Shown here one piece after another: positions 450 through 23,043 of a stretch of 23,043 bases of DNA (the stretch's first letter is position 1; the number at the start of each line of letters is the position of its first letter). The notes under the pieces were generated by a model. It was not told the DNA's origin, searched no databases, and was given only the letters and a program-made list of their open reading frames with translations. Origin of the DNA: a virus; the UHGV virus genome UHGV-1317269. One strand, 5' to 3'. The position numbers were made by a program, and so were the translations under genes.

Positions 450-530
450 GTTTTACGGATAACTGGTCAGACGAAGAATTCATTCGTCAGATGAACAAAA
501 TGCTCAATCAGCACAAAGAACAGGAGAAAG

Positions 531-2207: not shown

Positions 2208-2218
2208 TTGTATCGCCT

Positions 2219-4338: not shown

Positions 4339-4615
4339 CCTACAACTTGCCGTTAAAGGTGAATACTTCGATGCCATGATTCGCAGAGAGAAAACGGAAG
4401 AGTATCGCCTGTGTAATGACTACTGGAATAAGCGAATTATGTTCCGGGAGTATGATCGCCTGATTATCACAAAGGGATATCCGAAGCGCGACGATTCCAG
4501 CCGTAGAATTGATGTTCCGTATGACGGATATGAAATCAAGACAATCACACATCCGCACTTCGGCGATAAACCGGTAAAGGTGTTCGCGATAAAGGTGAAT
4601 ATCGGCAATGAATAA
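4331..4615 (+). CDS. ASCH/PUA-like (DUF3850-like) domain protein
   Basis: TTG start at 4331, 6 nt after AGGAGG (4319-4324); overlaps the upstream stop by 8 nt; LQLAVKGEYFDAMIRREKTEEYR resembles the ASCH-like N-terminal beta-barrel motif. Confidence 0.45.
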   Translation: MANLQLAVKGEYFDAMIRREKTEEYRLCNDYWNKRIMFREYDRLIITKGYPKRDDSSRRIDVPYDGYEIKTITHPHFGDKPVKVFAIKVNIGNE

Positions 4616-4649
4616 CAATCCTCGAACTCGCGGGGATTTCTTTTATCTG

Positions 4650-4675
4650 AACTCGCTACGGCGAGTTTTGTTTTA
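4650..4675 (+). terminator. putative intrinsic terminator (AACTCGC-tacg-GCGAGTT followed by TTGTTTT)
   Basis: 7-bp perfect stem, 4-nt loop, T-rich tail, directly after the ASCH-like gene. Confidence 0.45.
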
Positions 4676-4687
4676 TGGAGATGATAA

Positions 4688-4855
4688 ATGCACTTCCGAG
4701 TTACAGGTGAATGGAATGGAGAACCATTCAACAGAGTTATCGAAGCAGAGAACATCAATGACTGCTATGACCACTGGATGCTGTGGGTGCAGATAGCACA
4801 TGCAGACGTAACCAATATTCGAATTGAAGAACTGAAAGAACACCAAAACGCCTGA
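4688..4855 (+). CDS. small hypothetical protein (55 aa, MHFRVTGEWNGEPF...)
   Basis: ATG 4688 with GGAG at 4677-4680 (7-nt spacer); ends at TGA 4853-4855 inside a terminator hairpin; below the ORF-track cutoff. Confidence 0.35.
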   Translation: MHFRVTGEWNGEPFNRVIEAENINDCYDHWMLWVQIAHADVTNIRIEELKEHQNA

Positions 4856-4868
4856 TGGCGGTTTTTTT
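4845..4868 (+). terminator. putative intrinsic terminator (AAAACGCC-tgat-GGCGG followed by T7)
   Basis: GC stem followed by a run of seven T at 4862-4868. Confidence 0.45.
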
Positions 4869-4879
4869 GGGGGTAGTAG

Positions 4880-5095
4880 ATGGCTGCAATTCACATTGTA
4901 TCAATAACATGCAATGCAATTCAGATAGTTGCTTGCATTATCTTTGTTTTCTCAATCCTTCGCTCCCGACGATATTCTCCAGCAATTAACCGACATCCTG
5001 CACAAGTTGAAGCCGTCAGGATGGCTATAGAGTTACGAAATGAGATGAATAAGGCATTAATGGAGATGGAGAAACCATTCACTGACAAACATTAA
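4880..5095 (+). CDS. hypothetical small protein with hydrophobic N-terminal segment
   Basis: 71-aa ORF directly after the terminator; N-terminus IVSITCNAIQIVACIIFVFSIL looks like a transmembrane helix. Confidence 0.3.
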   Translation: MAAIHIVSITCNAIQIVACIIFVFSILRSRRYSPAINRHPAQVEAVRMAIELRNEMNKALMEMEKPFTDKH

Positions 5096-5203
5096 GAGTG
5101 GAAATAAAGAAATCACACCGCCTCACACTCGATGAGGCCTGTTCATTTCTCAAGATATCCAGACCTACCGCAATAATACCAATTCAATAAATGGAGATTC
5201 CAA

Positions 5204-5551
5204 GTGGAAGAAGAAATCTTCACTCGTGAAGAAGCTGCGTCGTATCTGAAGGTAGACAAAGGCACTATCACGCAGTGGATACGAAGTGGACGACTTCAGG
5301 CCGCAAAGATAAATCCAGATAAACCTAAAAGCCCATATCGCATTTGCAAGTCAGACTGCATTGCGGCGCTTAAGTCTGTGAGACACAATAGCGCGGTGAA
5401 TGCGGTTGATGTGCAGGAGGTTAAAGCATGTCAATCAAACTACGCGGTGGCACGTGGCACTGCGATTTCGTCGCGCCAGATGGATCAAGAGTTAGACGCT
5501 CTCTTGAAACATCGGACAAAAGGCAAGCGCAAGAACTTCACGATCGTCTGA
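5204..5551 (+). CDS. xis: excisionase (P22 Xis-like, HTH)
   Basis: 115 aa; GTG start 7 nt after GGAG (5193-5196); HTH-like EEAASYLKVDKGTITQWIRSGRL; sits immediately upstream of int and overlaps it by 124 nt in another frame, as in P22. Confidence 0.65.
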   Translation: MEEEIFTREEAASYLKVDKGTITQWIRSGRLQAAKINPDKPKSPYRICKSDCIAALKSVRHNSAVNAVDVQEVKACQSNYAVARGTAISSRQMDQELDALLKHRTKGKRKNFTIV

Positions 5552-6588
5552 AAGCAGAAGCGTGGAGAGTAAAAAATCTCGGGGAATCGCCGAAAAAGCT
5601 ATTCAAGGAAGCCTGCATACGGTGGCTGCGTGAGAAATCGGATAAGAAGTCCATTGATGATGACAAGAGCATTATATCGTTCTGGATGTTGCACTTCAGA
5701 GAAACCATTCTCTCTGACATAACAACAGAAAAAATAATGGAGGCGGTAGACGGGATGGAAAACCGCCGCCATCGCCTGAACTGGGAGATGAGCCGGGACA
5801 GGTGTTTGCGGCTTGGCAAGCCAGTGCCGGAGTATAAACCAAAGCTGGCAAGCAAAGGAACGAAGACGAGGCATCTGGCAATACTTCGCGCCATTCTCAA
5901 TATGGCTGTTGAATGGGGATGGATTGACAGGGCGCCAAAAATATCAACACCACGCGTTAAGAATGGACGCATTAGATGGCTTACAGAAGAAGAATCAAAG
6001 CGCCTGTTTGCAGAAATAGCTCCTCATTTCTTCCCTGTTGTCATGTTTGCAATCACGACAGGCCTTCGCCGCTCCAACGTTACAGACCTTGAGTGGTCAC
6101 AGGTCGATCTGGATAAGAAAATGGCATGGATGCACCCTGATGAAACAAAAGCTGGCAATGCGATCGGAGTTCCTCTTAACGAAACCGCATGCCAGATATT
6201 AAGAAAACAGCAGGGTCTCCATAAGAGATGGGTATTTGTCCACACCAAACCTGCCTACCGAAGCGACGGAACAAAAACAGCAGCGGTAAGGAAGATGAGA
6301 ACCGACAGCAACAAGGCATGGAAGGGAGCGTTAAAGCGGGCAGGCATTAGCAACTTCCGATTCCATGACTTGAGGCATACTTGGGCAAGCTGGCTGGTTC
6401 AGTCCGGTGTCTCTCTTCTTGCACTTAAAGAGATGGGAGGATGGGAAACTCTCGAAATGGTTCAAAGATACGCTCACCTTTCAGCCGGGCATCTCACCGA
6501 GCACGCGAGCAAAATCGATGCGATTATAAGTCGCAATGGCACAAATACGGCACAAGAGGAGAACGTGGTTTACTTAAATGTGAGGTAA
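5428..6588 (+). CDS. int: tyrosine site-specific integrase (phage integrase family)
   Basis: 386 aa; AGGAGG 7 nt upstream; catalytic signature residues visible (TGLRRSNV, HDLRHTWAS, VQRYAHL); transcribed towards the att core that starts 15 nt after its stop. Confidence 0.92.
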   Translation: MSIKLRGGTWHCDFVAPDGSRVRRSLETSDKRQAQELHDRLKAEAWRVKNLGESPKKLFKEACIRWLREKSDKKSIDDDKSIISFWMLHFRETILSDITTEKIMEAVDGMENRRHRLNWEMSRDRCLRLGKPVPEYKPKLASKGTKTRHLAILRAILNMAVEWGWIDRAPKISTPRVKNGRIRWLTEEESKRLFAEIAPHFFPVVMFAITTGLRRSNVTDLEWSQVDLDKKMAWMHPDETKAGNAIGVPLNETACQILRKQQGLHKRWVFVHTKPAYRSDGTKTAAVRKMRTDSNKAWKGALKRAGISNFRFHDLRHTWASWLVQSGVSLLALKEMGGWETLEMVQRYAHLSAGHLTEHASKIDAIISRNGTNTAQEENVVYLNVR

Positions 6589-6602
6589 CTTATTGATTTA
6601 AA

Positions 6603-6648
6603 TGGTGCCGATAATAGGAGTCGAACCTACGACCTTCGCATTACGAAT
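6603..6648 (-). other. attP core: 46 nt identical to the 3' part (anticodon loop through CCA) of a tRNA-Thr(CGU) gene, thrW-type; not a complete tRNA
   Basis: Reverse complement reads ATTCGTAATGCGAAGGTCGTAGGTTCGACTCCTATTATCGGCACCA: anticodon loop with CGT, T-arm GGTTCGACTCC and 3' CCA; the 5' half of the tRNA is absent (homology stops at 6648). Confidence 0.8.
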
Positions 6649-6931
6649 CTGTAGCACCTATCATAACTATCTGTTTTAGCAAGCATTAACCGCATTCACT
6701 AAGCTATAGTTGATGGCACAAACAGAAAGCTGATGCATGATGTTGTCATGTGTATGTCACAAATACGGCACAACGATCTTCAAACATGTAGCCACACATC
6801 AACAGAAGAGCACAACGCCTTGCAATCAAGTGCAAAGCTTTGTGTGCATCAGTTTTGTCTCATAGGTAATGAGGCTTTAACTGCGATGCAGTAATCCATA
6901 CTAAAATTTACTTAAAATTCATAAATACACC

Positions 6932-6965
6932 AGATAAAAACAATCCCGCATTTTTTATGCGGGAT
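6932..6965 (-). terminator. intrinsic terminator downstream of the tailspike gene
   Basis: ATCCCGCA-ttttta-TGCGGGAT hairpin (6943-6965) followed on the minus strand by TTGTTTTTAT. Confidence 0.55.
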
Positions 6966-6983
6966 ATACTGCATTTATTGCAA

Positions 6984-9689
6984 CTACATTGCCATTAATA
7001 TAAACATAGCCAATTCGTCATAACGAATTCCGTAGCGTCCTCCTGCTTTTTTTACAAGAATCATATCTCCTGTTTTATATTGAGAATAAATTTTCTCACC
7101 TGTATCAGGATCTGTGCTCTCTTCAGTTATCACCTCTTCATCCCATACGTCAGGCCATTCATCGTAACACCAAAAAGCATATTGCTCAGGGTTTAAACCA
7201 TGCTTTCTAAGAATATCCCCTACGGTTTGAGCGCCAACGCCAAAATGATACCTGGACGACTCAATTCCTTTGTGATTAATTGAGTCATTAAATTTAAATT
7301 TATAGATGACTGACTTTATTTCAATAGCGGCATCACGCTCTGCATTAAGAATATCATATCTTGTTTTAAGAGTTTCATCTGATGTATTGATTGACCCGGT
7401 TCCTGCATAAATAACAGAGCATCTGTTTGATGGCTGTCCAATAGCTTTAACATTATCATCAACAGGAGCTATTTTATTAGCATCTGCCAACCACCAGTCT
7501 GTTCCATCAGCGTGACCGATTCTTACTCTTATCCCGCTTCTAATATTTAAACTTCCAGTATTACTCTGTAAATTACAATCTCCTGACGTTGGTCCAAGCA
7601 GTACAGTTTTACCAACACCACATACTACTCTGGCATTTCCTTTTTGTGATACGAGTCTTGACTCACCTCCTGACTGCTCAGGAAGAGATTTATGGTCTAT
7701 AAATGCATCGCGGGGGTTAAATACACCGTCTCCAGAATTATATCTTCCTCCTGTATAGTTGTTAAATACAGGACCCCAGTCAACGCCATTGCCTTCAGAG
7801 CACCCGACCATTCTAAGCACTCGAGTATTCCCTGCTGCATATGGTAATGAGCTTGTTGATTGCCGGGAAGCTATCATACGTGCTCCATAACCAATAGCAT
7901 TACCACCATTTATAGTTACATATGCTTGCTGGCTTTCGAAATATGTACTGTAAAAGTTCATATTTCCACAGTCATGTAGATGAATAAGAACATCATCCCA
8001 TCCCTGAATGGTTCCTGCATGTACCTGTACACCGCGAACTGGTTCCCCTGAAACCTCCATACACTCTGATGGCCGGCTGAATGGCTGAGACAGGTATTGC
8101 GATGTGGCAAGCAGATGTGTGTGGTGATACAGGCTGGTAATGTAGCAATCGAAAAATTGCGTTCCCGCCATACCAAAGTTATCTATGTCATTTCGCCGTA
8201 TAGTAGAACCTACTGTTGCCTCAGAAGCGTTAGACACTCCAGTAAATACTAACTTATCACCGGATACGGATAATCCTGAATAAGTGAAATTCCTGCCTCC
8301 AGATCTTAAAACCCCGGACGTTTCGAAGGTGTGGCTTGCTGACCATGGGATTTCGATAGTGCTGGACGTTACCGCTGTAATTCGGAATACATCATGGGCG
8401 CGGATCGAAACACCCTTGAATCCTTGGAATCTACAGTGATAATAGTTTTCATCCTCGCCCTGAGCAGCCAGCGTGCCAGATACAGGAATGTTCGTTTTTA
8501 AAAGTGCCGTCTTGCGCCAGTATCCAACCACCTGCAAATTGCGGTATTCATTGCCAAAAGACGCACGTGACCAAATACCTACATCCCACTCATCGCCAAG
8601 ACCGGTATTTGCAATGTCTTTATAACCATCCAGCCCATTGAAATATGGAACAATACGAAAGTTCTCAAGGCGAACACATCCTGTCTCAGGCATCAATATT
8701 GCGGCAGAGAATGGTTTAAGTGTGGCTCTTGTAGCCCCATTAGCATCACCGTTAGTAAAATCCAATAAATCATATGATGAAGCAGGTGCCGTTGTTGTAT
8801 ACGGGTCTTCGGAAGATGGATTAGAAACCACGCCACCACTAACATCCATATTAGAAACACAATCTACAGTATATTTTTTATTTCCTACCCCGTACATCAG
8901 GAATGTGGTCCCTGTGGTAATATCAGGAGCAAATGTTGCAGTATATCCTGAGACCCATTTGCCCACACCAAGACAAATTATCCCACCACCAGAAACAGGT
9001 GTTAACGTATCCGTTATTACATACGCATTATCAGTACCATAAATAACCTTTCCTGTGTTAAGGGCAGCTTGCCACGCGGCCCAGTCTATTGACTGAGATA
9101 ATGAGTCAACAAAAGGATATAAGGATTTTGCTTCAGAAATTGAAGAAAACCACTCAGATAATGGATGATATTTCCCATCCCCAATTGCTCCAAATTGTTT
9201 TACATTTAAGAAAAGAGCATTGTTTTCATGCTGAGTTATAGTTACAGCCCCGGTAAATGGCTGCCTTACCCCAATTAATGCATCACCTTTTGAATCATCA
9301 TTAATGTATGCTCCTGATTGAGATAACTGCTCTTTGAAGTCTGGGCCAAACTGATCTGGATCGTATTTTAATACATTTGGGAAATAAAACTGCTGAGTGC
9401 CATAAGCATCGTAAACAGCCATAGAATGGCCTTGCACAGTTACGAACTTGGCAATCTGTCCGTTATATACCGGATATCCAGCAGCGTTAATGATGATTGG
9501 TTGCAAAACAGGAACGCGAGAACCGTCTTCGTTCTCTACATAAACCTGAATCTGGTTTTCAGGATTTACCGGGTCAGTGTCAATTTTTCCGATATAAATT
9601 TTGCCATTGGCAACCGCTTTAAAAGAACGAGCCATAGTGAAGAGTTGCGAAGGCATGCTTACCACAACATTGGCTGTAATGTCTGTCAT
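6984..9689 (-). CDS. tailspike protein: P22 gp9-like N-terminal head-binding domain, divergent receptor-binding body, C-terminal intramolecular-chaperone (peptidase S74-like) domain
   Basis: 901 aa; first ~110 aa ([11 protein letters not shown]...[32 protein letters not shown]...VLKYDPDQ) match the remembered P22 tailspike N-terminus; central region rich in G/S/T/N repeats; C-terminal [11 protein letters not shown] fits the S-D-x3-K autocleavage motif of chaperone domains. Confidence 0.88.
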
Positions 9690-9747
9690 TTAATTTGCTC
9701 CAGATACAAGGAATCTCCGCAGCGGGGCTACGGTGAATTTTGGGCAT

Positions 9748-9770
9748 AAAAAAACCCAGCCGAAGCTGGG
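9748..9770 (-). terminator. intrinsic terminator between ant and the tailspike gene
   Basis: Minus strand reads CCCAGC-ttcg-GCTGGG followed by TTTTTTT. Confidence 0.6.
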
Positions 9771-9789
9771 TAGTTGCGTTGGTTATCTG

Positions 9790-10692
9790 TCAGTGGTTAT
9801 GTACTGAAGGAGGTAATTCTTTATTCTTAAGTCTCATCCATGCGGAAAGATTCGTTGGTCCGTCTGGCTCATTGATATCAACATCTCGTGTGTGATTAAT
9901 TAAAACGTCCCTCGCCATTCCGATAACATACGAGAACTCATGACCGTAGTCGTAGCATCTGCCGGAATAGTTCGATTGAATTTGTTTTAATGCCGGATAC
10001 AGTTCGCGGAATAATGCCTGTGAGCGATTGGCATAATCCCATAGCCATACAAGGCTGTTTGCTTCTTTTGCAGAAAGCTCGTTGGTTTTCTTCTCTTGTT
10101 TGCCAATGAACTCACCTTCAAGCACTACCCTGTGGATGTACTCTACGGCTTTCGGTATCTGAGATGCATCAAGCTCTTCAATACTTTCCACATTGAAACG
10201 CTGATGAATCATTGCATAAGCTTCTGGGTACATTAGATGCTTTTTGCTGACCAGCATATTTACAGCATCACGAAGCGGAGTCCTGTCATCAACAGATGTT
10301 TTCTTACGTGCATTTTCTGCCTTTCCCTTCGTCCAGTAGTCATGCAGCACAGTAAAGCATTCTTCCTGGTACTGAATCAGTTTATCACGGATGTCAGCAC
10401 GAACTTTCTCAGGGTTGATGCTGAACAGCCATCCATTTAACTTCTTCAAAGGAAGACAGAGTAGCTTACGAAGCTTACCATCAGCGGCAACCATGTTCAT
10501 ATGAACACAGTTGAATTTGCTAATCTGCTTCATGAGTTTTGTTTGCTGCGTTGACCAGCTCATTCCAAGGTTTTCAACGATTGGCTTCATCGCAACATAT
10601 GCAACTCCGGCAGCCATGGCGGTGATAATTTGCTGACCGTTGAATGGTACGTAAGAGGTGTTCACTGCTTCTAAAATTGCTATACTATTCAT
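9790..10692 (-). CDS. ant: antirepressor Ant (P22 immI)
   Basis: Start set at MNSIAIL (ATG 10692, GGAG upstream), giving 300 aa, the length of P22 Ant; directly downstream of arc as in P22; the upstream in-frame extension used by the ORF track is not adopted. Confidence 0.7.
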
Positions 10693-10693
10693 G

Positions 10694-10760
10694 TTGGTTT
10701 TTCTCCACGGATTTACTGACAAACGAAGCCCTGACTGTTCCCGCAGTTGGGGCTTCAACT
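10694..10760 (+). ncRNA. candidate sar-like antisense RNA region covering the ant ribosome-binding site (by analogy with P22 sar)
   Basis: Plus-strand -10-like TATACT at 10681-10686 inside the start of ant; extended hairpin GAAGCCC...GGGCTTC at 10725-10756 in the arc-ant spacer. Inference only, exact ends unknown. Confidence 0.3.
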
Positions 10761-10922
10761 TTACGCGCCAATGCGCCCTTCCTTCTTAAAGCTTTCCATT
10801 ACTCTCTGATAAATCTCAGAGTTAACAGACCGACCATTCTCTTCCGCCACCTTGCGTACCAAATCCAATACTTCTTTAGGCCACCGCAAATTGAACTGCG
10901 GCATTTTGCTCATTCCTTTCAT
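10761..10922 (-). CDS. arc: Arc repressor (ribbon-helix-helix)
   Basis: 53-aa translation [53 protein letters not shown] is essentially the P22 Arc sequence as I recall it; the ORF track's N-terminal extension is not used. Confidence 0.95.
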
Positions 10923-10936
10923 GTTCACCTCACAAT

Positions 10937-10957
10937 ATAGGTCCACGGTGGACCTAT
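10937..10957. promoter_or_regulatory. Mnt operator (O_mnt), overlapping the Pant promoter
   Basis: Perfect palindrome ATAGGTCCACGGTGGACCTAT, the known P22 mnt operator. Confidence 0.8.
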
Positions 10958-10964
10958 TGAGAAT

Positions 10965-10985
10965 ATAGTAGAGTGCTTCTATCAT
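10965..10985. promoter_or_regulatory. Arc operator (O_arc) in the divergent Pant/Pmnt region
   Basis: ATAGTAGAGTGCTTCTATCAT, matching the P22 arc operator sequence. Confidence 0.8.
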
Positions 10986-11012
10986 GTCAATACACTAACT
11001 TGGAGTGATGGC

Positions 11013-11264
11013 ATGGCTAGAGATGATCCGCACTTTAACTTCCGTATGCCTATGGAAGTAAGGGAGAAATTAAAATTCAGGGCGGAGGCGAATGGGAGAT
11101 CAATGAACTCCGAGTTGTTACAAATCGTCCAAGATGCTCTATCAAAACCATCGCCTGTGACTGGATATCGTGACGATGCAGAACGACTCGCTGATGAGCA
11201 GTCAGATCTTGTTAAGAAGATGGTGTTTGATACGCTGAAGGATTTGTACAAAAAACCCACCTGA
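11013..11264 (+). CDS. mnt: Mnt repressor (maintenance of lysogeny; ribbon-helix-helix)
   Basis: 83-aa translation MARDDPHFNFRMPMEVREKLKFRAEANGRSMNSELLQIVQDALSKPSPVTGY... matches remembered P22 Mnt; divergent from arc. Confidence 0.95.
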   Translation: MARDDPHFNFRMPMEVREKLKFRAEANGRSMNSELLQIVQDALSKPSPVTGYRDDAERLADEQSDLVKKMVFDTLKDLYKKPT

Positions 11265-11278
11265 CGGTGGGTTTTATT
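11250..11278. terminator. bidirectional intrinsic terminator shared by mnt (+) and the converging minus-strand accessory operon
   Basis: AAAAAA-CCCACC-tgac-GGTGGG-TTTTATT; the mnt stop codon lies in the loop. Confidence 0.6.
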
Positions 11279-11699
11279 AGTGCTTGTATAGCTTGAACTC
11301 CCTGTCGAGCCATAAGACATAAAAAGTGGCTCCTATCTTATAACCAACCATAGGTGCCTTAGAGCAAAATCTGAACGCAATGAAATCCACATCTTGAGTA
11401 ACATGCTTAGGAATCGGAGCCTTTATCGCGTTTCTGGCAATTTTTTCCGTCCCAAGCCCGTGTTTATCAGATTTTCGTATCTCATCCCATGACATCTGAC
11501 TTAACCTGAACAGCCTATCTGCAAATGCTGCCTTTTCATGCTTTTGGCAGCAATCCAGGCAATACCCCTTTTGTAGGTATCTAAGAGAAAATACAGGCGG
11601 ACTTTTTTCTACATCATGAGATTCGTGATGGATAGAGAGGCCAACAGTAGCAGAGCTCTCTTTATCCCTCTGTTTTATTCTTCCCTTAACTCTAGACAT
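11277..11699 (-). CDS. hypothetical 140-aa protein, candidate toxin/effector partner of the upstream Panacea-domain protein
   Basis: Starts 5 nt after the stop of the upstream gene; no confident family assignment from reading; contains an R-x4-H element (RKSDKH) and a beta-rich C-terminus (MVGYKIGATFYVLWLD). Confidence 0.5.
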   Translation of the reverse strand: MSRVKGRIKQRDKESSATVGLSIHHESHDVEKSPPVFSLRYLQKGYCLDCCQKHEKAAFADRLFRLSQMSWDEIRKSDKHGLGTEKIARNAIKAPIPKHVTQDVDFIAFRFCSKAPMVGYKIGATFYVLWLDREFKLYKH

Positions 11700-11704
11700 A
11701 CACG

Positions 11705-12148
11705 TCAGTTAATTAACGTTTTGAAAAAACCTTTCATAGAATCAAGTGTGATTTCTTGGCTAACCGCACCCTCAATGTAAGCATCTTTCCATGGCTGCTC
11801 TTCGTGAGTCATATTGCGCAGTTTCCAGGCAGAAAACTGACCATAAACTTTATACACCTCATCCAGCAATTCAATTTCATCTTCACTGAATTTTTTAGCG
11901 TCAAAGTTTTCTGGCGCAGGTAAAGCTCCGTTACCACAGTCCCTATATTTACGATACAATTCAGGAACTACTGGCCCATGCATCCAGGCTTCAATTTTCT
12001 CATTAAATAGCGGCTTACCCAGAAGAACCAGAGAAAACCCTTGGGCATAATACGTCAACTTCTGAATTTTTAGGTTAGAGATAATGTCGCCACTTTCTTC
12101 ATCGCAATGCGCCAAGAAGTAGTCGGCGACATCAAAACAAGTGAGCAT
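11705..12148 (-). CDS. Panacea-domain (DUF4065, PanA/SocA/GepA-like) protein, candidate antitoxin
   Basis: NLKIQKLTYYAQGFSLV...FNEKIEAWMHGPVVPELY resembles the conserved core of DUF4065 as I recall it; start placed at the Met 7 nt after GGAGG (the ORF-track start is 2 codons upstream); AT-rich relative to the late genes. Confidence 0.55.
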   Translation of the reverse strand: MLTCFDVADYFLAHCDEESGDIISNLKIQKLTYYAQGFSLVLLGKPLFNEKIEAWMHGPVVPELYRKYRDCGNGALPAPENFDAKKFSEDEIELLDEVYKVYGQFSAWKLRNMTHEEQPWKDAYIEGAVSQEITLDSMKGFFKTLIN

Positions 12149-12522
12149 AAACATACCTCCATCTTGATAGCCGCAGCTATGTATACAACTGTGTCAAGTT
12201 GCATTTAATACCATAACAAAGCTGTCATCAATCCTTCAGAGGCTAACTTACAACCACTTTCTCGACACGTTTAAATCATTACGTTTCACATTTACTGCAT
12301 TTTCGCCGAAGTTACCTATAAGGTAATGTCACATTTCCTGCAAGTTTCATGCAATGTTGAAAAGTGAGCTATTCACTTTTCTATGACACTAAACACCAAA
12401 AATAGCACTTTTTGCTAAATCATTCGTCCAAGTTGTGGATGGCTTGTCGTTGACACGTTTTCACACACCACTCCACCAATACAGTATCATCTGGTATCCT
12501 GCTCAAAACTAAGGAGGTTGGT

Positions 12523-12729
12523 GTGAAGCGATGGGTTATCGGTCTTGCTGCAGTTACTGTTTTTATTTTCTCGGCTTCGACTGGTTACGGGGTTAGATTC
12601 TCATCATCAAGAATCAACGATAAGATTGAATGCAGATACATAAGTGTTTCCGGCAAATTCTCCAGAAATTACTGGTATTCAGATAATGGAATCATGGGAA
12701 TTAGCAATTGCCCTTTATTTGACAGATAG
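12523..12729 (+). CDS. small membrane-anchored or secreted protein (68 aa)
   Basis: GTG start 5 nt after AAGGAGG (12511-12517); N-terminal hydrophobic segment WVIGLAAVTVFIFSAS. Confidence 0.4.
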   Translation: MKRWVIGLAAVTVFIFSASTGYGVRFSSSRINDKIECRYISVSGKFSRNYWYSDNGIMGISNCPLFDR

Positions 12730-12746
12730 CCATCCGTGGCTCCTAT

Positions 12747-13037
12747 TCATTTTTTACAGGCGATGAGCAGATTCCTTGATATGGTGTTACCTGCAAATGC
12801 CATCTCTGGGTTTGCCGTTGCCAAAAATCCTTTGTCTCCTGCAGATGTCAAGACATCATATCCTTTGCTTCCACACAAATCGCCAGCCTTGGTTAGACAC
12901 ATACCCCATGAACCACCAAGACCTGAGCAATCAATAGTGTATGCCTCTCTGCCATCAGGCGCGTATGTTTTAGAAGATGTTGCACAACCAGACAAAAGAA
13001 TGACATTAAAACAAGCAACTGCAATGATCCGCTTCAT
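12747..13037 (-). CDS. putative lipoprotein (accessory gene downstream of gp16)
   Basis: MKRIIAVACFNVILLSGC is a signal peptide with a lipobox (LLSGC); Cys-rich mature part; preferred over the overlapping opposite-strand ORF 12736-13074. Confidence 0.5.
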   Translation of the reverse strand: MKRIIAVACFNVILLSGCATSSKTYAPDGREAYTIDCSGLGGSWGMCLTKAGDLCGSKGYDVLTSAGDKGFLATANPEMAFAGNTISRNLLIACKK

Positions 13038-13132
13038 ATCAATTTCCATATTTACAAAACCGGAAACATCCTAATGACAAAACAATCAAATGTGAAGCAC
13101 GAGATAAGATCAATCCATCCGTGGACGACTAA

Positions 13133-15259
13133 TTACTCCTGTGTCATTCCGCTTAGCGATGCCACAATCCCAGCCCTCGCTAATTGCTGAAACTCTTCGT
13201 TTCCGACTGTATCACGTATCGCTTTTACGGCAGCTTTATTTGCCATAAATCTGCGTTCAGCCGCCACTAATGCTTCTTTGCTTCCGCCTGCTCTTACTGC
13301 TTTAGTTGCTTCCTGAACTGCTTTCTCTATCGCATACCGACCACTACGTGTGGTGGCAATTTTAGATACAGCGCCTTTTAACCCAGCGCCAACTAAAGCA
13401 CCTGCGGCAGCGCCTGCAATGCCTCCTCCAGCGCCACCAACAATGGCACCTGATGTTGAGTTGGCAATTGCATTTAACACTGTTGATGTGACGTTGGATA
13501 AACCAGCATCCAGATCGCGTAGTACATTGGCAGTTCTCCCTGTTCTTTCAATATACTGCTGAGGTTTCACTGCTGCTCTTGCAAGAGTGCCATATGCATC
13601 AGCAATTCTTCCAAGCTCTGAGGAATATCGGCTAATGGCTTTTACATTTTGTGGAGTGAGTATCTCTGCGATATGGTTAATTCCTGCGGCATCAGCTTTG
13701 CCACCACGTACACCATGCGAGATGGCATCCTGCAACATTGATGATATAGCAGGAACACGCTCTGATTCTGGCAGAGCGCGGATCATAGAATGGAATCCAG
13801 CAGGACCATTGAGACCTTTAGCTGACGATGATTGAAGAGATTTTACTCCATTCGTAATCAGTGCATCTGTTGCCAAATCACGCCCGAAAACAGACTCTGC
13901 ACTCTCTTGTGCTGATAATCTCGCTTTAGACAGATCATTAGCTTTTTGCCAGTCATCAAGAAATCCGCCGTTTTCCGCCATTGTGCGCATATCATCAGTA
14001 ATTGCCCGGCGTATTTCCCCTGCTCTCCTTGCCGCATTTGCCTCTCCGCTACGCTTATATTTTTGCTCCGCATCAGCAAATTTCGCTCTCCATGCTTTCA
14101 TGCCATCAAATGTTACTCCACCTTGATTGTTTGCCTGAACAAACTGTTTCATTTCAGTAGTAAGCGGTATGCCGGCAGATCGCTCTGCCTGAATAACGGC
14201 ATTACCATTTAGCATTCTTGCTTTTTGATTTGGCATTGTTGACCGCACGTCATCCCATGCCGCGCGCTCGGCATCCTTCATCTGATCAAGATTTTGAAGA
14301 ATCCTTTGTTTTATAGCCGCACTTTTTTCTGATGCCGTTCCAGATGCGGCCCCAAATTCATCAAGGTTTCGACTTAACTTTGATGATATTTCGTTAAATG
14401 CTGCCTGATGGGCGTCCTGAACAATTCCTGGTGTTGATGCCAATGCGCCTTCGGCTTGTGCAATTCCACGACTTCCAGATCGCATTCCTGGTGTTAATGC
14501 GTTTATATCAATTCCAGCAGACTCAGCCGCTTTTGCTACATCTTCGGACACATTAGCGGCCTGTCTGGCAATTGACTGACGCCCAGCACCTGACTTTGCC
14601 ATCCTGGAAACATCATTAGCAGAATTCAGTGCTGCACCACCAAGAGCCTGTGAAACCCTTGGCGCAATAACGCGCCCGACACCTGAAAGAACGCCTTGAG
14701 CACCAATATTGATACCACCGTTAATGGCAGTATTTTGTGCAAAATCACCCTCCTGATTTGCAGCATCAGCAAGAGAACCTGCAATCATGTTTCCTGCGGA
14801 ACCGATGTCTCCTGCGAGCTTTGCTGGCGCTCCAGCAGCTTTTGCCGCTGTGCCAATTGGCAGGAGATACCCACCAATTGTTTCACCGGCTTGCGCGTAA
14901 GGGTCTGTCGGTCGATCGACTGGACGATAGACATCATCCAATACTTTTGGCCCACCAAGCCCCTGACTGATTGCATTAATCAGGCTTGCGCCGCCCTGCA
15001 ATACGTCAAATGGTATGTTTACCAGACCACGACCAGCCTGCTCTGCAATTTGCCCTGCACTTTGACCACCTGTGAGCCAATCGCCAGCTTGTTGCATCAA
15101 TGATGGTTCTTCACGTGCTGGTTCATTATTGGCCTGATTAACTGTTTGTTGCTGAACAGCCTGACCAGCAAAATACTCATCAATGGCGGTACCAATATCT
15201 TCCGTGCTCGTACCATCAGGGAAGGTAAATTTCTTACCGTTTGCAGTTACTTTCATCAT
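13133..15259 (-). CDS. ejection (injection) protein, P22 gp16-like
   Basis: 708 aa, in the gp16 position after gp20; Ala/Gly-rich low-complexity stretches; stop/start overlap with the upstream gene. Confidence 0.7.
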
Positions 15260-16668
15260 TCCACCGTAAATTGAATGCCTGATTTTGAGGTATATGATCC
15301 AACCTGATTCCGTGGTTCTCCTGAAGGTGTCGAATCTTGTGCTGGCGCTGCGTCAGTATTCATTGACATATACCGCTTAACGGCACTCCCCAATGATTCA
15401 CCTTTTTTAACATCCAACCCCAATATCTGACCGCCATTACGCGATTGTCCAGGGTTGCCATTCGCGCTCATCCACTCAGCTTTAAACTCATTAAACTGCG
15501 CGTTTCGTCGCTCAAGGTTTGCCATTGCATCAAGCCATCTTGCGACCGTCTCAGGGTTATCCATGTCAGTTGGCGCACCCTGTCGAACAATCTCAACGTC
15601 TTTATCCGTTGCTGGGCCGGGAGGTAGGAATTTAAGAACCTGACTGTTAACAAGGGCATTTTGGCGAATGCGCAAATCACGCAATGTCGTATCGCTTCCG
15701 GTAAGTTTTGCGAACATGTTCTGTGCGTTACCGAACAAACCGGTCGTTGGTTTTTCTGCTCTGAACTGTTGAGCAAGCGCACTCATGGAATTGGCTGAGT
15801 TTGATGATGCTGTGGCATTGTTTACAGCCGTCTCGATGCCTTTTTCCATGTTTACTGACAGCTTAGGTGCTTCGCTAATCAACTGCTGAGCCTTTTCCTG
15901 CGCTTGCTGCATCTTAAACCCGAACTCTTGCTGATCCAGAGCCAAGCGTTGTGCTGCGATATTGTGCCCAGTCATTGCTGACTGATAGGAAAGGTTTTGC
16001 CCTCTCGCCTGAAGTGCTTCACCAGCCTGATTGCTGCGGATTGTCTCTGCCAGCCTGCCTCGGTCAATTTCACGAACAGCCATCTTGTCCTGAACATTGA
16101 AGTAATCAATCGGACCAAGAGCAGCCATCCCAAGGTGATCAACAAACTCACCAAATCCTGAAGGATTCTGCTGATACATTTTCGCCACATCCAGAGGGTC
16201 TACTCCGGCACGAGTAAGCTCAGATGAGTTGTTCTGCAACCATGACATCATGGCTTCTGGAGATGAAGCTGCCAGTCTGGCACTTGCTGCCAGTGTGCCG
16301 ACAGTGGAACGCTGGTCTTCATCGACAAATTTCATGCCGTTTCTTACAGCGTCAAACTGCTCAGGATACTGTGATGCCAGTTTTCGCATTGCATCGCGGT
16401 CACCAGATGTATATGCATCAGCATAAGCCTGCTGAAACTCTTGCTGTCGCTTCTGCTGATCCATCTGCTTATACATATCCATGACAGATGAAATGCCCTG
16501 CAAAGCCTGCAAGCCAACGTTATTACGTCCTGAACGCTCCATCTCGTTATTCTGTCGAATGTATGCAAGCGTGGCGTCTGCATCACTTGCTCTTGGAGCG
16601 TTGGAGTTCATGCCGCCTAACCCGGCAAGAAGCGCGCCTGAATTACCAGCCTGTTGCCATGTAGCCAA
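15256..16668 (-). CDS. ejection protein, P22 gp20-like
   Basis: 470 aa (P22 gp20 is about this size), located between the gp7 and gp16 homologues. Confidence 0.7.
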
Positions 16669-16680
16669 GAGACACCTCCA

Positions 16681-17334
16681 TTAAAAAAGTGAACCAAGAA
16701 GACCGACGCCAGCACCAATTGCTGTACCCCAACCAGGCATGATTGCAGTACCTGCAGCTGCACCTGCTGCCGCTCCACCCAAGGCGCTCTGAAATCCTGA
16801 TGGTTTATTCGCATTAGCCGCAGATGCTGCCGCCTGCTGTTGATACAATTGGCTGACGTTGTTAGCGTAGTTCTGCCCAGCGTTTGCCTGACCTGTAAGA
16901 GCACCAAGGCCGATATTTGCCAGATTGTTGTAGTTGTTCATCTGACCTGACAGCCAGTTTTGACCGAGTGTAGGTGCGATTGCTGCTAACTGGTTTCCTG
17001 TTGCTGTAGAGCCTAATCCACCCGTTGCCTCTGCTGCTGCCAGACTCTGATAGCGCGCCTGCCCTGCAAGGTCTTTATACTGCTGAGAGTTGTAATACTG
17101 GTTAAGCGCCTGACCTTGCCCCTGAAGAGAGGAAAGATTTTGCAACTGTGATACGTACTGCTGAGCGAGTGGCGTGAACGGTGCAAGGTTCTGCATGTTC
17201 GTTTGCCACATTTCACGCTGCAATTCGATGCCCTTTTCAGTTGCGCGTGCCTGGGCTTTTGAACCGCCATCACTGCCACCTTTGCAGTAAACAGTTTTGC
17301 TGAGGTGCTTATTGGCAATCTGGAAAATTAACAT
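16681..17334 (-). CDS. ejection protein, P22 gp7-like
   Basis: 217 aa, Q/A/G/N-rich, position between gp14 and gp20. Confidence 0.65.
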   Translation of the reverse strand: MLIFQIANKHLSKTVYCKGGSDGGSKAQARATEKGIELQREMWQTNMQNLAPFTPLAQQYVSQLQNLSSLQGQGQALNQYYNSQQYKDLAGQARYQSLAAAEATGGLGSTATGNQLAAIAPTLGQNWLSGQMNNYNNLANIGLGALTGQANAGQNYANNVSQLYQQQAAASAANANKPSGFQSALGGAAAGAAAGTAIMPGWGTAIGAGVGLLGSLF

Positions 17335-17791
17335 TCTTTAGCTCCTCGTATTTTGAGCGCGGTAACTGATAAATCGTGATGCCTACAGGCTTTCCATTGC
17401 TGGTATAAGCATCATCGAGGTGACCAACACGGGTAGCGCCAAGCAAACGGATAATTGCCCGTCCGTATTTCGTTGTGTCAGGAACCATGGTGATGCTGTT
17501 AAGGAATGGTGAGTTTTCGAGAAGCCATTTGCAGAATAATCGATGCCCTTGCAGTGCATATTCACCACGGAATCCGGGGTCGTACACCGCATGGCATTCA
17601 ACAACGCTATGCCAGAAGTTACGCACTTCATGAACGCCAGCCAGCACTAATCCTTCGTAGATGCCGAGGTATACCGCATCAGGCTTGATGTAGTATTTAT
17701 CTCCACTGTCTACGATATTTCCCGTGTTTGCCGGGTTGTTGAGGAATTCTGCAAGCTTCACCGGATTATCGATGAGCTTTATTTCCATCAC
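17309..17791 (-). CDS. P22 gp14-like protein
   Basis: 160 aa; position directly after the tail needle gene with an ATGA overlap. Confidence 0.6.
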
Positions 17792-18636
17792 TGCTCCGCA
17801 ATGATTTTGATGGTTGTGGCAGTAAACGCCGCACCATTTGACTGAATGGTTAACGTGCTGCCATTTGTGGCAAGAAAGCCGTCTTTATCCACGCTGAAGA
17901 ACGTAGCTAACAAGATGTTATCGGTTGTTGTCGCCGAGTTGCGACTGCTTACCAGTGTGTCAGGAACAGAGCCGGAAAAGGTTAGCTGCATTGACCTGTT
18001 GGCGGTTCCGCTGGGCCACGTCCCGACGATCGACAGCTTGAAGAACAAGGTTTTGTTCTCGTTGAACACAACCATCTTGTTGTTAACGGTGTCGAAGAAT
18101 GGTGCCAACGTGCCGGATGACGGCGTGAGCGTTTTCAGCAGGCTAACAAGGTTGGTCGGCGCTGTCGGGATGGTTACAGATACGCCAGAGTAAACAACCT
18201 CTGACTTCTTGCGAGTAGTGGCATACTCCAGAGCATCGATGCGCGTTTCATGGTCTGAAACCTGCGATTCCAGCGACTGAACTCTGGTATCAAGCGACGC
18301 AATATCGCTTTCATTCTGAGCGATTCGCGTTTCATGTTCCTGAAGAGTTGATTCTGCCTGGCTGATTCGCTCCTCATGATTAACAAGCGTTGCTTCCGCA
18401 GCAGAAATTCGCTGCTCATGGTCAGAGAGAATCACATCCTGCTCATCGTTCCTGACTTGTGCGTCATAAGCGCCCTGTCCGGCCTCGTTGGCCTTGTTCG
18501 CCACATTACCAACATCAGTACCCTGTGCGATAACGTAAAGCAGATACGACTGCGAGAAGATATTGCGTGGAAGCACTGATGTGTCGAGTCGCGTAGCTTG
18601 GATGATTACCGGCACATTGAGATTCGAATCAGCCAT
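17788..18636 (-). CDS. tail needle protein (P22 gp26-like N-terminus and coiled coil, with an extended C-terminal knob-type domain)
   Basis: [43 protein letters not shown]...[19 protein letters not shown] matches remembered P22 gp26; GGAGG 7 nt before the ATG at 18636; total 282 aa versus about 233 in P22. Confidence 0.85.
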
Positions 18637-19174
18637 TAACATGCCTCCACGATTTACCAGACTGGATATTGTGAATCACCGTCTGACTGACACAGTATTT
18701 TTTAGCAAGCTCTCTTTGATTAACTCCCTTTGATTTCTTTATTTCTATTACTTGCTCATATGAGAGCTTTGAAATTGGATTATTTTCTCCTTTTAAAGCC
18801 GGAAACTTCACCCTGCCTTGAGATGAGCAATGCTTCATATTCTCCTTTTGAGTACACCACTCTAAATTAGAAGCATTATTATTTTTTCGGTTGTTATCTA
18901 TGTGATTTATGAACGGCTTGCCTTCTGGATTGGGGACGAAAGCAAGAGCGACAAGCCTATGCACAAGCCATTTTACTTTAACTCCATCAACACTAAGTGG
19001 CAAATATAGATAACCTTTATTATTCTCGTGTTGTTTTAGCCACCGACCCTTTCTGAGTTGCGTGCTGCCATGCGCAGCCTTAACAACACGTGAGTGAGAA
19101 TATACTCGCCCATCCTCTGTTACGGCATATAAACCTTCATATCCAGGAATATCTTTTGCGTTTTCACTCAACAT
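18629..19174 (-). CDS. free-standing HNH homing endonuclease (NUMOD4-like N-terminus, HNH core, C-terminal HTH)
   Basis: [16 protein letters not shown] (NUMOD4-like), [22 protein letters not shown] (HNH core), C-terminal [19 protein letters not shown]; own AAGGAG RBS 5 nt upstream; conspicuously AT-rich; P22 has no gene between 10 and 26. Confidence 0.8.
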
Positions 19175-19195
19175 ATCTACTCCTTTAGTTTCGAT

Positions 19196-20296
19196 TTATG
19201 TTACACGAATAGAAAGGCCTGATAATGTAACAGGACCTTTTGCAATAACTCTGAATTTAAATCCAATGAGGCGTCTAACTCGACCAACTTTTCGCCATAA
19301 AACGCGATTGTCATATACAAATGGTTTTTGTAATACGACCATTTGCTCACGACCGTAATTAATTCCATCTGTAGTTGCTGATATAAATATTCTATCTATT
19401 CTATCACACACGCCGCCAGATGTTTCTAATTCAAGGTCATTTATTAAAACGTTATCTGCCTTTATTAAAGGAGAATATAAAATATGTTCCTGTTGCTTGT
19501 CGTACTGACTGCTGATATCGAACTGCAATTTCCCGGTCACGGATTCCAGCTTATCGCCGCACGTTATCTGATTGCCTTCGTAAATGAAGTCGATAGCGCG
19601 GTACACATCGTCATACAGGCCTGTTTTCAGTACACACCATTGCGGACCATTGGCGCTTGAAGATGCGTCGTACACGAGAACATGGCGCGGAAGATGGATA
19701 ATCAGCAGCTCATGCGCATCAAATCGCAGAGACTCCATCACACCATCAGCCAGTTCATCAGCAGTGTAGGAGCGGAGAATTTTCTCAATGCTCGCGCTGG
19801 CGATTGGTGATACCTGACCGGAGCCGATGATATACACAGACGGAGCACCTGTTGCCGGATTGCTGATGAACGCATAAGAATCAGAGAATGGCGTTTTGCA
19901 GTAAGTCCCGGCAATGCCTTTCTGCACCATAAGAGATGTCTGTGCGACATACAAAGCAGCACCAACGGTGGTTGCACCCGTCAGGGAGAAATATTCAATC
20001 GTCGATGAACCAAAGCAGACGATGAAATCTCGCCATGTTCCGATGCCGATGATGCCGTCAGGCTGAGACTCTGCGCGATATTGTGCGCTGTAGCGGTCAG
20101 GATGCGATTCGTCTTCAAGGTCAGTGATAAACCATGAATCAGTTCCGTCTTTTGACCACGCATAACGCCCGCGTAAGCGCGTAATGTCACGAACAGAACC
20201 CAACTCATACTGCGTGAATCCGCTGTCTGTAGGCCAGTTTGAGACGGTTTTAACCGTGCCATCATAGCGGTATTCGACCAGTTGACCATTAACGCC
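19196..20296 (-). pseudogene. gp10 (tail accessory/head completion) C-terminal fragment, codons 107-472, truncated at a rearrangement junction
   Basis: Translation from [21 protein letters not shown] onward is colinear with the gp10 N-terminus seen at 22688-23043; upstream of 20296 the reading frame runs into reversed scaffold-gene sequence ([18 protein letters not shown]). Confidence 0.8.
20259..20296. repeat. 38-bp inverted repeat, copy A (gp10 codons 107-119); partner at 23006-23043
   Basis: Reverse complement of 20259-20296 is identical to 23006-23043 (GGCGTTAATGGTCAACTGGTCGAATACCGCTATGATGG); identity stops exactly at 20296/20297. Confidence 0.9.
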
Positions 20297-20297
20297 A

Positions 20298-20627
20298 GCA
20301 GTCGGTGCCGACATCATGCGCCTCTTCCCGGAGAAATCCGCTGCTCTCATGTATCACCTTGGTGCTAATCCTGAAAAAACACGCCAGTTGCTGGCGATGG
20401 AAGGACAATCAGCGCTGATTGAACTCACTCGACTGTCAGAACGTTTAACTCTCAAGCCTCGAGCAAAACCTGTTTCAGAAGCCCCGTTACCTGATGAACC
20501 CATTCAGGGACATGCTGTTGCTGCAAATATCTCTGCGATTGAAAAGCAGATGGAAGCGGCAGCAAACAAAGGGGATGTAGAGACATACCGCAAGCTCAAG
20601 GCGCAACTGAATAAAGGAATTCGATAA
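20298..20627 (+). pseudogene. scaffolding protein (P22 gp8-like) C-terminal fragment, about 109 codons, 5'-truncated at the junction
   Basis: Ends ...[30 protein letters not shown], the remembered coat-binding C-terminus of P22 scaffold; stop overlaps the coat ATG; no N-terminal two thirds upstream. Confidence 0.7.
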
Positions 20628-21922
20628 TGGCATTAAATGAAGGTCAACTGGTCACGTATGCTCTGGATGAAATCATCGAAACCGTCCAGAACCTGACGCC
20701 AATGGCGTCCAAAGTGACAAAATACACCCCTCCGGCAGAATCCATGCAACGTTCAAGCAACACCGTGTGGATGCCTGTTGAGCAGGAAGCGCCAACTCAG
20801 ACTGGCTGGGATTTAACTGGCAACGCTACCGGTATTCTGGAACTGTCCGTGAAATGCAACATGGGCGATCCGGATAACGATTTCTTCGAGCTTCGTGCAG
20901 ATGACCTGCGTGATGAGCGTTCTTACCGTCGCCGCATCCAGGCATCCGCCAAAAAACTGGCGAATAACATTGAGTCAGCAATTGCCAAGCAGGCAACTGA
21001 AATGGGCTCACTTGTTGTTCACGATACCCGCGCAATTGGTCCATCTACTGGCCTGTCTGGCTGGGATTTTGTGTCTGATGCAGAGCGCCTGATGTTCTCC
21101 CGCGAGCTAAACCGCGACATGGGAATCAGTTACTTCCTGAACCCTGACGATTACCGCAAAGCAGGCCGCAACCTGGTAGATGGTGACATCTTCGGGCGCG
21201 TTCCTGAAGAAGCGTATCGCAACGGTACTATTCAGCGTCAGATTGCTGGCTTTGATGAAATTCTTCGCTCACCGAAACTTCCGGCAGTTACCAAGTCAAC
21301 CGCGACTGGTGTAACTGTTTCTGGTGCGCAGAAGTTTAAGCCGCAGGCATACACCCTTGATACCGATGGTAACAAAGAGAACGTCGACAACCGTGTTGCA
21401 ACGGTGACCGTATCCTCCACCACCGGGTTTAAGCGCGGCGACAAAATCAGCTTCACTGGTGTGAAATTCCTGTCTCAGATGGCGAAGAACGTGCTGACTG
21501 ATGATGCTACTTTCTCAATCACCCGTGTGATCGATGGTACTCACATCGAAATCACGCCGAAACCGATTGCACTGGATGACGCGTCACTGACAAAAGAAGA
21601 GAAGGCTTACGCTAACGTAAACACCTCTCTTGCTGATACCACTCCGGTAAACGTTCTGAACGTGGCAACAACCACCGCTAACGTGTTCTGGGCTGATGAC
21701 TCAATCCGCCTGCTGTCTCAGCCGATCCCGGTAACCCATGAACTGTTTGCTGGCATGAAAACGTCTTCCTTCAGCATTCCTGGCATTGGTGTTAACGGCA
21801 TCTTCGCAACGCAGGGTGATATCAACACTCTGTCTGGTAAGTGCCGTATTGCTGTGTGGTATTCAGCATGTGCTGTACGACCAGAGGCAATTGGTGTTGG
21901 TCTGCCTAACCAGACCGCGTGA
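20627..21922 (+). CDS. major capsid (coat) protein, P22 gp5-like
   Basis: 430 aa; [54 protein letters not shown]... is nearly colinear with remembered P22 coat protein. Confidence 0.95.
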
Positions 21923-21929
21923 TAACCAG

Positions 21930-21952
21930 AGGGAGCTTCGGCTCCCTTTTTT
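21930..21952 (+). terminator. intrinsic terminator after the coat gene
   Basis: AGGGAGC-ttcg-GCTCCCT followed by TTTTTT. Confidence 0.65.
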
Positions 21953-21966
21953 ATCTGGAGACAAGC

Positions 21967-22209
21967 ATGACACACATGATCTTTCGTCATGGCGACATGA
22001 AGAAATGGAAAGGCGTTGGCTACGACTTTGAAATCGTGAAAGCCGAAGAGCTTCAGGAATATCTGGATGCTGGCTGGTTTTCACATCCTGATGACCTTTT
22101 GAAGGATGTTGCAGAGCCAGAGCCAGAGCCAGAGCCAGAAGAAAAACAGCGTAAAAAGCCTGGTCGAAAACCTAAGGCGGCAGCAGATGAACCTGACAAC
22201 GAAGGGTGA
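21967..22209 (+). CDS. small hypothetical protein with an (EP)4 repeat and basic tail, between coat and gp4
   Basis: ATG 21967 with GGAG 6 nt upstream; contains the (GAGCCA)4 tandem repeat; overlaps the gp4 start by 23 nt. Confidence 0.35.
22114..22137 (+). repeat. (GAGCCA)x4 perfect tandem hexanucleotide repeat inside a coding region
   Basis: Directly visible; encodes EPEPEPEP in the 21967 frame. Confidence 0.9.
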
Positions 22210-22687
22210 TTTAGTTCTTGCGGCATTACGTAAGCTCGGTGTGGCATCAAATGCCACGTTAACCGATGTAGAACCGCAGTCTATGGAAGACGGCGTCAAC
22301 GACCTTGAAATGATGATGGCTGAATGGCTTGGCGGTGATGTGTCACCAGGTATCAACGTTGGCTACATTTTCGCTGATGCAGATGTCGCTCCAGATCCGG
22401 GAGATGAGCACGGTTTATCAAATAACGCTATCAATGCCGTCATTTTCAACCTTGCCTGCCGCATTGCACCGGATTATGCGCTGGAAGCGTCAGCAAAACT
22501 TATAACCACTGCCAGATACGGGAAAGAGCGACTCGTCAAACTGTCTGCAATGGACAGAGCAAAAGCCGCTAAATGTAAGTCCGGTTATCCAAACCGTATG
22601 CCTGTTGGTAGCGGTAACCAGTTGGCGAAGTGGAACGGTTGGAATTACTTCCACCGAAAGGAACCTTGCGATAACGGGAGCGAATAA
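22187..22687 (+). CDS. tail accessory factor, P22 gp4-like
   Basis: 166 aa from [33 protein letters not shown]..., matching remembered P22 gp4 ([29 protein letters not shown]...HGL...[14 protein letters not shown]); the ORF-track N-terminal extension is not adopted. Confidence 0.8.
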
Positions 22688-23043
22688 ATGCCTATTCAGC
22701 AACTTCCGCTTATGAAAGGTGTCGGCAAAGACTTCCGAAATGCCGACTATATCGACTATCTGCCAGTGAATATGTTGGCTACACCCAAAGAAATCCTCAA
22801 CAGCAGCGGATATCTTCGCTCATTCCCGGGCATTGCCAAACGTTCTGATGTGAACGGCGTATCGCGAGGCGTCGAGTACAACATGGCGCAGAATGCTGTT
22901 TATCGCGTGTGTGGCGGCAAGCTCTACAAAGGCGAAAGCGAAGTCGGTGATGTTGCCGGAAGTGGTCGCGTATCAATGGCGCATGGGCGGACATCACAGG
23001 CGGTAGGCGTTAATGGTCAACTGGTCGAATACCGCTATGATGG
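22688..23043 (+). CDS. gp10-like tail accessory/head completion protein, N-terminal 118 codons (partial, continues beyond window end)
   Basis: ATG at 22688 directly after the gp4 stop; MPIQQLPLMKGVGKDFRNADYIDYLPVNMLATPKEILNSSGYLRSFPGI... matches remembered P22 gp10; not in the ORF track because no stop lies in the window. Confidence 0.85.
   Translation, partial: MPIQQLPLMKGVGKDFRNADYIDYLPVNMLATPKEILNSSGYLRSFPGIAKRSDVNGVSRGVEYNMAQNAVYRVCGGKLYKGESEVGDVAGSGRVSMAHGRTSQAVGVNGQLVEYRYD
23006..23043. repeat. 38-bp inverted repeat, copy B (gp10 codons 107-119), truncated by the window edge
   Basis: Identical to the reverse complement of 20259-20296. Confidence 0.9.

Follow-up and report, generated by a model that had tools for sequence, protein, structure and literature searches.

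Head-to-head join between gp10 and the scaffold gene in a P22-like phage contig, most likely a chimeric-molecule artifact over a colinear genome

The stretch of DNA analyzed here (the window; 23,043 nt of the virus genome UHGV-1317269) contains a P22-like (Lederbergvirus) module comprising genes 8, 5, 4, 10, 26, 14, 7, 20, 16, and 9, each with its Pfam family. The larger part of the window (nt. 1–20296; block X) is natural P22-like sequence, with the late genes on the minus strand and the integrase and early-left genes on the plus strand. Its minus-strand series runs from gp10 (codons 107–472) through an HNH gene, gp26 (an Sf6-type knob), gp14, gp7, gp20, gp16, a moron region, and ant to the tailspike, beyond which lie attP and, in plus-strand orientation, int and the early-left genes. 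The gp10 portion (packaged-DNA stabilization/head closure; nt. 19196–20296, minus strand, codons 107–472 and the stop codon) matches positions 105–468 of the 469 in the PF11134 Phage_stabilise profile (nt. 19199–20296, E = 1.4e-217), and nt. 20296 falls on gp10 codon 107 in phase 0, using the gp10 of the Escherichia coli strain DLL7555 prophage as reference.

Beyond this point the sequence switches to the plus strand (block Y). It begins with the third base of codon 194 of the scaffold gene, followed by codons 195–303 and the stop codon (nt. 20297–20627); this fragment, which was compared with the IME10 scaffold protein, matches positions 197–301 of the 303 in PF09306 Phage-scaffold (nt. 20298–20624). 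The coat gene (gp5; nt. 20627–21922) is intact and matches the P22 coat family PF11651 (nt. 20627–21919). In the variable slot between the coat gene and gp4 lies an 80-a.a ORF (nt. 21967–22209), and it is followed by an intact gp4 (tail accessory/head-tail adaptor; nt. 22187–22687, PF11650). The block closes with codons 1–118 and two further nucleotides of gp10 (nt. 22688–23043), which run off the end of the window, match PF11134 positions 1–115 (nt. 22688–23041), and are 100% identical to the DLL7555 gp10. The two halves of the layout given by the first-pass annotation, namely gp10 codons 107–472 followed by the P22 order on the minus strand, and the C-terminal third of the scaffold gene followed by coat, gp4, and the start of gp10 on the plus strand, are thus borne out by the Pfam matches and, for the latter, also by the translations. 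The colinear, single-strand order 8-5-4-10-26 is broken in the window at nt. 20296/20297. The nearest phage records (HZ41, Louie, and IME10) show 96–97.5% identity over this block.

Between gp10 and gp26 lies an HNH/NUMOD4 homing-endonuclease-like gene (nt. 18629–19174, minus strand, Pfam), which was missing from the gene list of the first-pass annotation. It is present in the DLL7555 prophage, in three further loci (L003, L012, and L033), and in the Salmonella phage UPF_BP1, and absent from IME10, HK620, and locus L001; given this distribution, it behaves as a mobile insertion in the gp10/gp26 slot. The tailspike (901 a.a; nt. 6984–9689, minus strand) has a P22 head-binding N-terminus, and its C-terminus is an endosialidase-type intramolecular chaperone (Peptidase_S74, with a weak End_tail_spike match). 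The moron region between gp16 and mnt/arc (nt. 11277–12154 on the minus strand and about nt. 12500–13100) holds a Panacea (SocA) protein, a 140-a.a ORF to which no family was assigned, and a YobH-like small protein, and occupies the slot where P22 carries sieA. The exact tailspike protein was found in 305 blocks of the searched collection and the Ea22-like protein in 148. The window holds nothing new in kind, its genes being those of a standard Lederbergvirus and identical to those of common E. coli prophages.

At the join, antisense gp10 codon 107 abuts the last base of codon 194 of the sense scaffold gene, so that opposite strands are joined at two points that the natural genome separates by 2709 nt. 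No Ns occur at the join. A base-by-base comparison showed that the four nucleotides CGCC at nt. 20293–20296 are common to antisense gp10 and sense scaffold, and both BLAST segments against DLL7555 take them in. The true crossover therefore lies anywhere inside nt. 20293–20296, and microhomology of at least 4 nt is expected at 1.6% of random joins (p = 0.016). Antisense gp10 and sense scaffold also show patchy similarity across nt. 20297–20322, ending in a shared CATGCGCC, and BLAST matches to HK620-type and E. coli gp10 genes accordingly run 26 nt beyond the junction, to nt. 20322. We considered and rejected a longer homology across the junction, as the alignment consists of patchy similarity, apparently due to chance, ending in CATGCGCC; this similarity could nevertheless have stabilized mispriming.

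Self-comparison of the window showed that nt. 20259–20296 (gp10 codons 107–119, minus strand) and nt. 23006–23043 (plus strand) are exact reverse complements over 38 of 38 nucleotides, where about 7e-15 inverted pairs of this length are expected by chance in 23 kb. The inverted identity ends at nt. 20296/20297 on one side, and its outer end is the end of the window itself (nt. 23043), the distal copy being natural gp10 that simply continues. The length of 38 nt is thus set by where the window stops and is a lower bound, not the size of an element. The first-pass annotation had read these 38 bp as present twice in inverted orientation, with identity ending exactly at a codon boundary. The exact match and its end at nt. 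20296/20297 stand; the duplication does not, for the contig re-enters its own reverse complement and there is no discrete duplicated element to explain. The codon boundary likewise carries no significance, as the breakpoint is ambiguous over the four nucleotides of CGCC, which belong to both parents. Since 38 equals k−1 for k = 39, the graph walk may have stopped on reaching k-mers already used; if the window is instead an excerpt of a longer fold-back contig, the figure of 38 is arbitrary.

The same prophage is present in colinear form in the closed E. coli DLL7555 chromosome (NZ_CP186931.1, nt. 4560127–4581000 being the colinear reference). By BLAST, nt. 6598–20296 of the window align to nt. 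20001–33699 of the DLL7555 locus (L037) on the plus strand with 99.964% identity, and nt. 20293–23043 align in reverse to nt. 36412–33662 of the same locus with 100.000% identity over 2751 nt. The two segments overlap by 38 nt (nt. 33662–33699 of L037), and the 38-mer occurs in DLL7555 as one copy only, within an intact gp10. Given this lone copy and the opposite-strand matches, nt. 20296/20297 is the only novel adjacency in the window. In the sequence up to nt. 23043 no second novel junction was seen, the distal end (nt. 23006–23043) being uninterrupted natural gp10. The remainder of the window is equally ordinary, with nt. 1–6648 being 100% identical to two integrated prophages (L042 and L043).

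A colinear version, rebuilt by placing block Y ahead of the reverse-complemented block X with the overlap removed from the latter, matches the E. coli chromosome OZ038639.1 (L033) at 100% over 4413 nt and the Logan contig SRR21847831_197 (L012) at 99.9% over 10.3 kb. The exact coat protein is found in 8660 blocks of the collection, colinear at every place listed, and the exact 80-a.a protein in 1295, with the order 8-5-x-4-10 throughout the loci listed. The order 8-5-x-4-10-26 was seen in the 20 loci listed around identical coat and 80-a.a proteins as well as in IME10, HK620, and DLL7555. Compared with the late operons of the latter three, the window has all the same genes and sequences but carries block Y opposite to block X. 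The conclusion of the first-pass annotation that the late operon is not colinear is therefore true of the contig, while the natural phage is colinear, at 99.96–100% identity in a closed chromosome. The comparison with close P22-like genomes that it had proposed showed the colinear order in every relative examined. As to the inversion, fold-back duplication, or chimeric join that it had offered as explanations, the join is truly present in the sequence, and a simple reciprocal inversion is unsupported given the uninterrupted gp10 at the distal end. On the sequence comparisons, the natural phage is an ordinary, colinear P22-like temperate phage integrating at thrW.

Searches for the junction elsewhere returned little. 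The 300 nt surrounding it had no covering match among 50,697 phage records, nor in any of 5,426 complete E. coli genomes, and a junction-spanning 40-mer had zero matches in IMG/VR, JGI metagenome contigs, and GTDB genome contigs. The phage as such is frequent, and each occurrence seen is an integrated, colinear prophage at thrW. In the Logan contig SRR21847831_197 the scaffold gene is interrupted 16–19 nt from the window junction (equivalent to about nt. 20313–20316). Positions 1–30 of this contig come from the terminus of a Mu-like transposable prophage, and the same terminus adjoins many other E. coli genes (malZ, rfaH, yfiB, and clbG). A recombination hotspot in the scaffold gene, as the break in this contig might suggest, was therefore rejected in favor of an unrelated Mu-like insertion; the contig also came from an exact-protein query biased toward such breaks. 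Separately, we noted a prophage (L036, nt. 3222–5243 of the locus, GCA_964041805.1) with 100% identity to the window over 3177 nt in which gp10 is cut to 262 a.a and is followed by a resolvase/invertase gene and tail-fiber genes (Collar and Caudo_TAP). Here a relative has genuinely been rearranged, at a breakpoint other than that of the window.

The junction does occur in one other assembly. The Logan contig SRR2041989_55 (29,726 nt) carries it identically, base for base; over the compared region (nt. 9196–20774 of the window) it shows one difference in 11,579 nt, and it runs 478 nt past the junction. By protein-position index, a 103-a.a truncated scaffold ORF and a 372-a.a junction-spanning ORF both led to exactly one junction contig, this one. 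A literature search for the run SRR2041989 found no mention of it. Logan contigs are built from de Bruijn graphs with k = 31, in which an overlap of 4 nt is too short to link two sequences, so the junction must be in the reads and must have been seen at least twice, and its presence in a second, k = 31 assembly argues against a scaffolding or concatenation error. SRR2041989_55 moreover crosses the junction unbranched, from which it follows that the natural links (gp10 codons 106–107 and scaffold codons 194–195) were absent or pruned there. This hints that in SRR2041989 the junction was locally as abundant as the natural sequence or more so, and not a small minority.

The single difference lies at nt. 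14158, where a T is private to the window (gp16 codon 368 ACT, Thr), against a G in SRR2041989_55, L012, and DLL7555. The T changes the protein, and the exact gp16 of the window has no match on record; the window sequence itself was likewise absent from the collections searched. The T may be an error of sequencing or consensus calling, or it may mark a different library; in the latter case the junction may occur in two libraries, which would favor a real molecule in the source DNA. The ends of the two assemblies also differ (position 1 of the window, and a Logan end at nt. 20774 of the window), each being traversed by the other assembly. We found no repeats at these two ends, and the pattern fits patchy coverage.

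The form of the sampled DNA can be read from the attachment site. The attP core (51 nt, the 3′ part of the tRNA thrW; nt. 6598–6648) lies between the tailspike and int (nt. 5428–6588, plus strand), a tyrosine integrase and the only recombinase found. Identity to prophage flanks ends at nt. 6648 on the int side and begins at nt. 6598 on the tailspike side, and the same core is annotated as attP/thrW in HK542 and mEp213. The window thus has the excised, or virion, attP configuration, whereas the database relatives seen are all integrated, between proA and the vat island. The 51-nt core exceeds k−1 at both k = 31 and k = 39, and in DNA from a lysogen it would form a two-in/two-out repeat at which the contig breaks; the window is unbroken through the core, indicating that DNA in phage form (from virions, a lysate, a virome, or a culture under heavy induction) dominated the sample. 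We infer that the sample was of this kind, in which amplification is common.

Taken together, we consider it somewhat probable that the join stems from a chimeric molecule produced by in vitro template switching of the type seen in multiple displacement amplification (MDA), which was then followed by the assembler; amplification is assumed here. A strand being copied as gp10 antisense would have stopped at codon 107, and its 3′ end (…CGCC) would have annealed to its 4-nt complement in the scaffold gene, 2.7 kb further along and on the other strand. Synthesis would then have resumed in the sense direction, giving a strand-switch, or inverted, chimera of the phi29-MDA kind or by related template switching. 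The assembler may thus have left block X via the chimeric link, walked through the scaffold C-terminus, coat, gp4, and the 5′ end of gp10, and ended 38 nt into the reverse-complement repeat of block X. In its graph structure this resembles the loop formed by the chloroplast inverted repeat and small single-copy region (IR/SSC): block Y is linked at each of its ends to one and the same end of block X, can be walked validly in either orientation, and leads the path back into X reversed, where it stops. Unlike the chloroplast case, one attachment here is a non-natural intragenic junction and not a long inverted repeat.

The anatomy of the join is that of known MDA chimeras. Among chimeras formed by phi29 MDA, 85% are inverted (Lasken & Stockwell 2007, PMC1855051), with most join points less than 10 kb apart; 93.5% of these inverted chimeras show at least 2 nt of complementarity, ranging up to 21 nt, and the proposed mechanism is that a displaced 3′ end primes on a nearby displaced 5′ strand (PMC1855051). 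The window join is likewise inverted, spans 2709 nt (below 10 kb), has 4 nt of complementarity (within the range of 2–21), and is a single junction with no reciprocal partner. The join agrees with the published pattern in every feature that sequence can show; what differs is that the window junction seems locally dominant in one assembly. By analogy, the chimera would be of in vitro origin. Two features of the locus favor this origin. Packaging in P22 is unidirectional, from pac in terS toward the 3′ end of terS (PMC8575938), and with both arms pointing away from the junction a pac-initiated headful series would not package a fold-back formed in vivo. The break also destroys the scaffold gene and gp10, such that neither an inversion nor a fold-back could dominate a virion population. 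Individual MDA chimeras are usually rare unless the input is very low. The apparent local dominance in SRR2041989 would therefore call for very low input, copies of one chimeric fragment duplicated by PCR, or a jackpot in amplification.

A genuine strand switch in vivo, whether fold-back or inversion, would have to have reached high frequency in the phage-form population, perhaps triggered by a break near the HNH gene, and might persist in genomes that are defective, dependent on a helper, or replicated without being packaged; on the whole we regard this as rather unlikely. One form of it would be a fold-back (inverted duplication), itself an unlikely reading, in which a nascent strand or broken end switched strands at CGCC during phage replication, setting natural concatemer arms head to head around a 2.7-kb asymmetric loop, and the product was abundant in the extracted DNA. 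Such a molecule would share the anatomy of the preferred reading (one junction, a natural distal end, inverted orientation, and 4-nt microhomology), much as known in vivo template-switch fold-backs combine a head-to-head joint and short microhomology with natural arms and a kb-scale asymmetric spacer. It would also suit the Logan assembly, where the junction appears to dominate the natural links, and, through the private T, a possible occurrence in two libraries. One may speculate that in mixed infections the HNH gene, which lies 1.1 kb from the breakpoint in gp10, might be a source of double-strand breaks. Yet each such event is a one-off giving a non-viable genome, and with packaging of both arms directed away from the junction no entry into virions is expected, whereas the window shows phage-form attP. 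In contrast to known fold-backs, the window molecule would be unpackageable, lacks scaffold and gp10 function, shows no sign of being replicated or inherited, and was never seen in the E. coli genomes, phage records, or three contig collections searched. Distinctly improbable is a true 2.7-kb inversion, from the scaffold C-terminus to the gp10 N-terminus, fixed in a defective phage or prophage, with a 38-nt duplication and the reciprocal junction beyond the window. The unbranched k = 31 path would be better explained by a clonal inversion from which the two natural links are missing, and the block is indeed bounded by inverted 38-mers. However, the distal end is natural gp10 for all 38 nt with no second breakpoint seen, the duplication would have to be real and of a length that happens to match the window end, and a phage with neither functional scaffold nor gp10 could not dominate phage-form DNA unless a helper were present; the inversion, too, is absent from the phage records and complete E. 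coli genomes.

At the other extreme, the join could have been made purely in assembly or post-processing, with no molecule behind it, through k−1-overlapping contigs pasted the wrong way or a scaffolder mis-join. The 38-nt end overlap does resemble the k−1 overlap of adjacent graph contigs, and the join contains no Ns; but the same junction, with 478 nt past it, is found in an independent assembly made at k = 31, and the 4-nt microhomology (p of about 0.016) points to annealing rather than arbitrary pasting, leaving this explanation very improbable. A programmed invertible segment, with a Gin/Hin/Cin-like invertase acting on the 38-mers, is suggested by geometry only, namely inverted repeats around a 2.7-kb segment. 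It is effectively refuted, as the natural genome holds one copy of the 38-mer and the inversion would cut two essential genes; among the ORFs scanned by Pfam there was no resolvase or invertase domain, the sole recombinase being the tyrosine integrase at attP. Two further candidates were rejected: a mate-pair circularization junction, as these join the same strand and not opposite strands, and a telomere-phage hairpin, as the junction is non-palindromic and the phage is of the P22-like pac type.

The join is thus best filed, as the most likely case, as a chimeric-molecule artifact carried into the assembly, over an otherwise normal, colinear P22-like genome. Its value lies in quality control: no split scaffold gene or gp10, inversion of the head module, or inverted repeat of 38 bp should be annotated on the contig, and the ORFs that cross the join (384 a.a, nt. 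19196–20350, or 372 a.a, nt. 19196–20314) are not real proteins. The combination of a near-identical closed genome, a count of novel adjacencies, a check for self-re-entry, and the junction in an independent assembly makes a test that can be reused. Were the fold-back true in vivo, the junction would equal the natural gp10 links in number and block X would have twice the depth of block Y. It would then be one more microhomology-mediated fold-back in a replicating phage, a modest finding.
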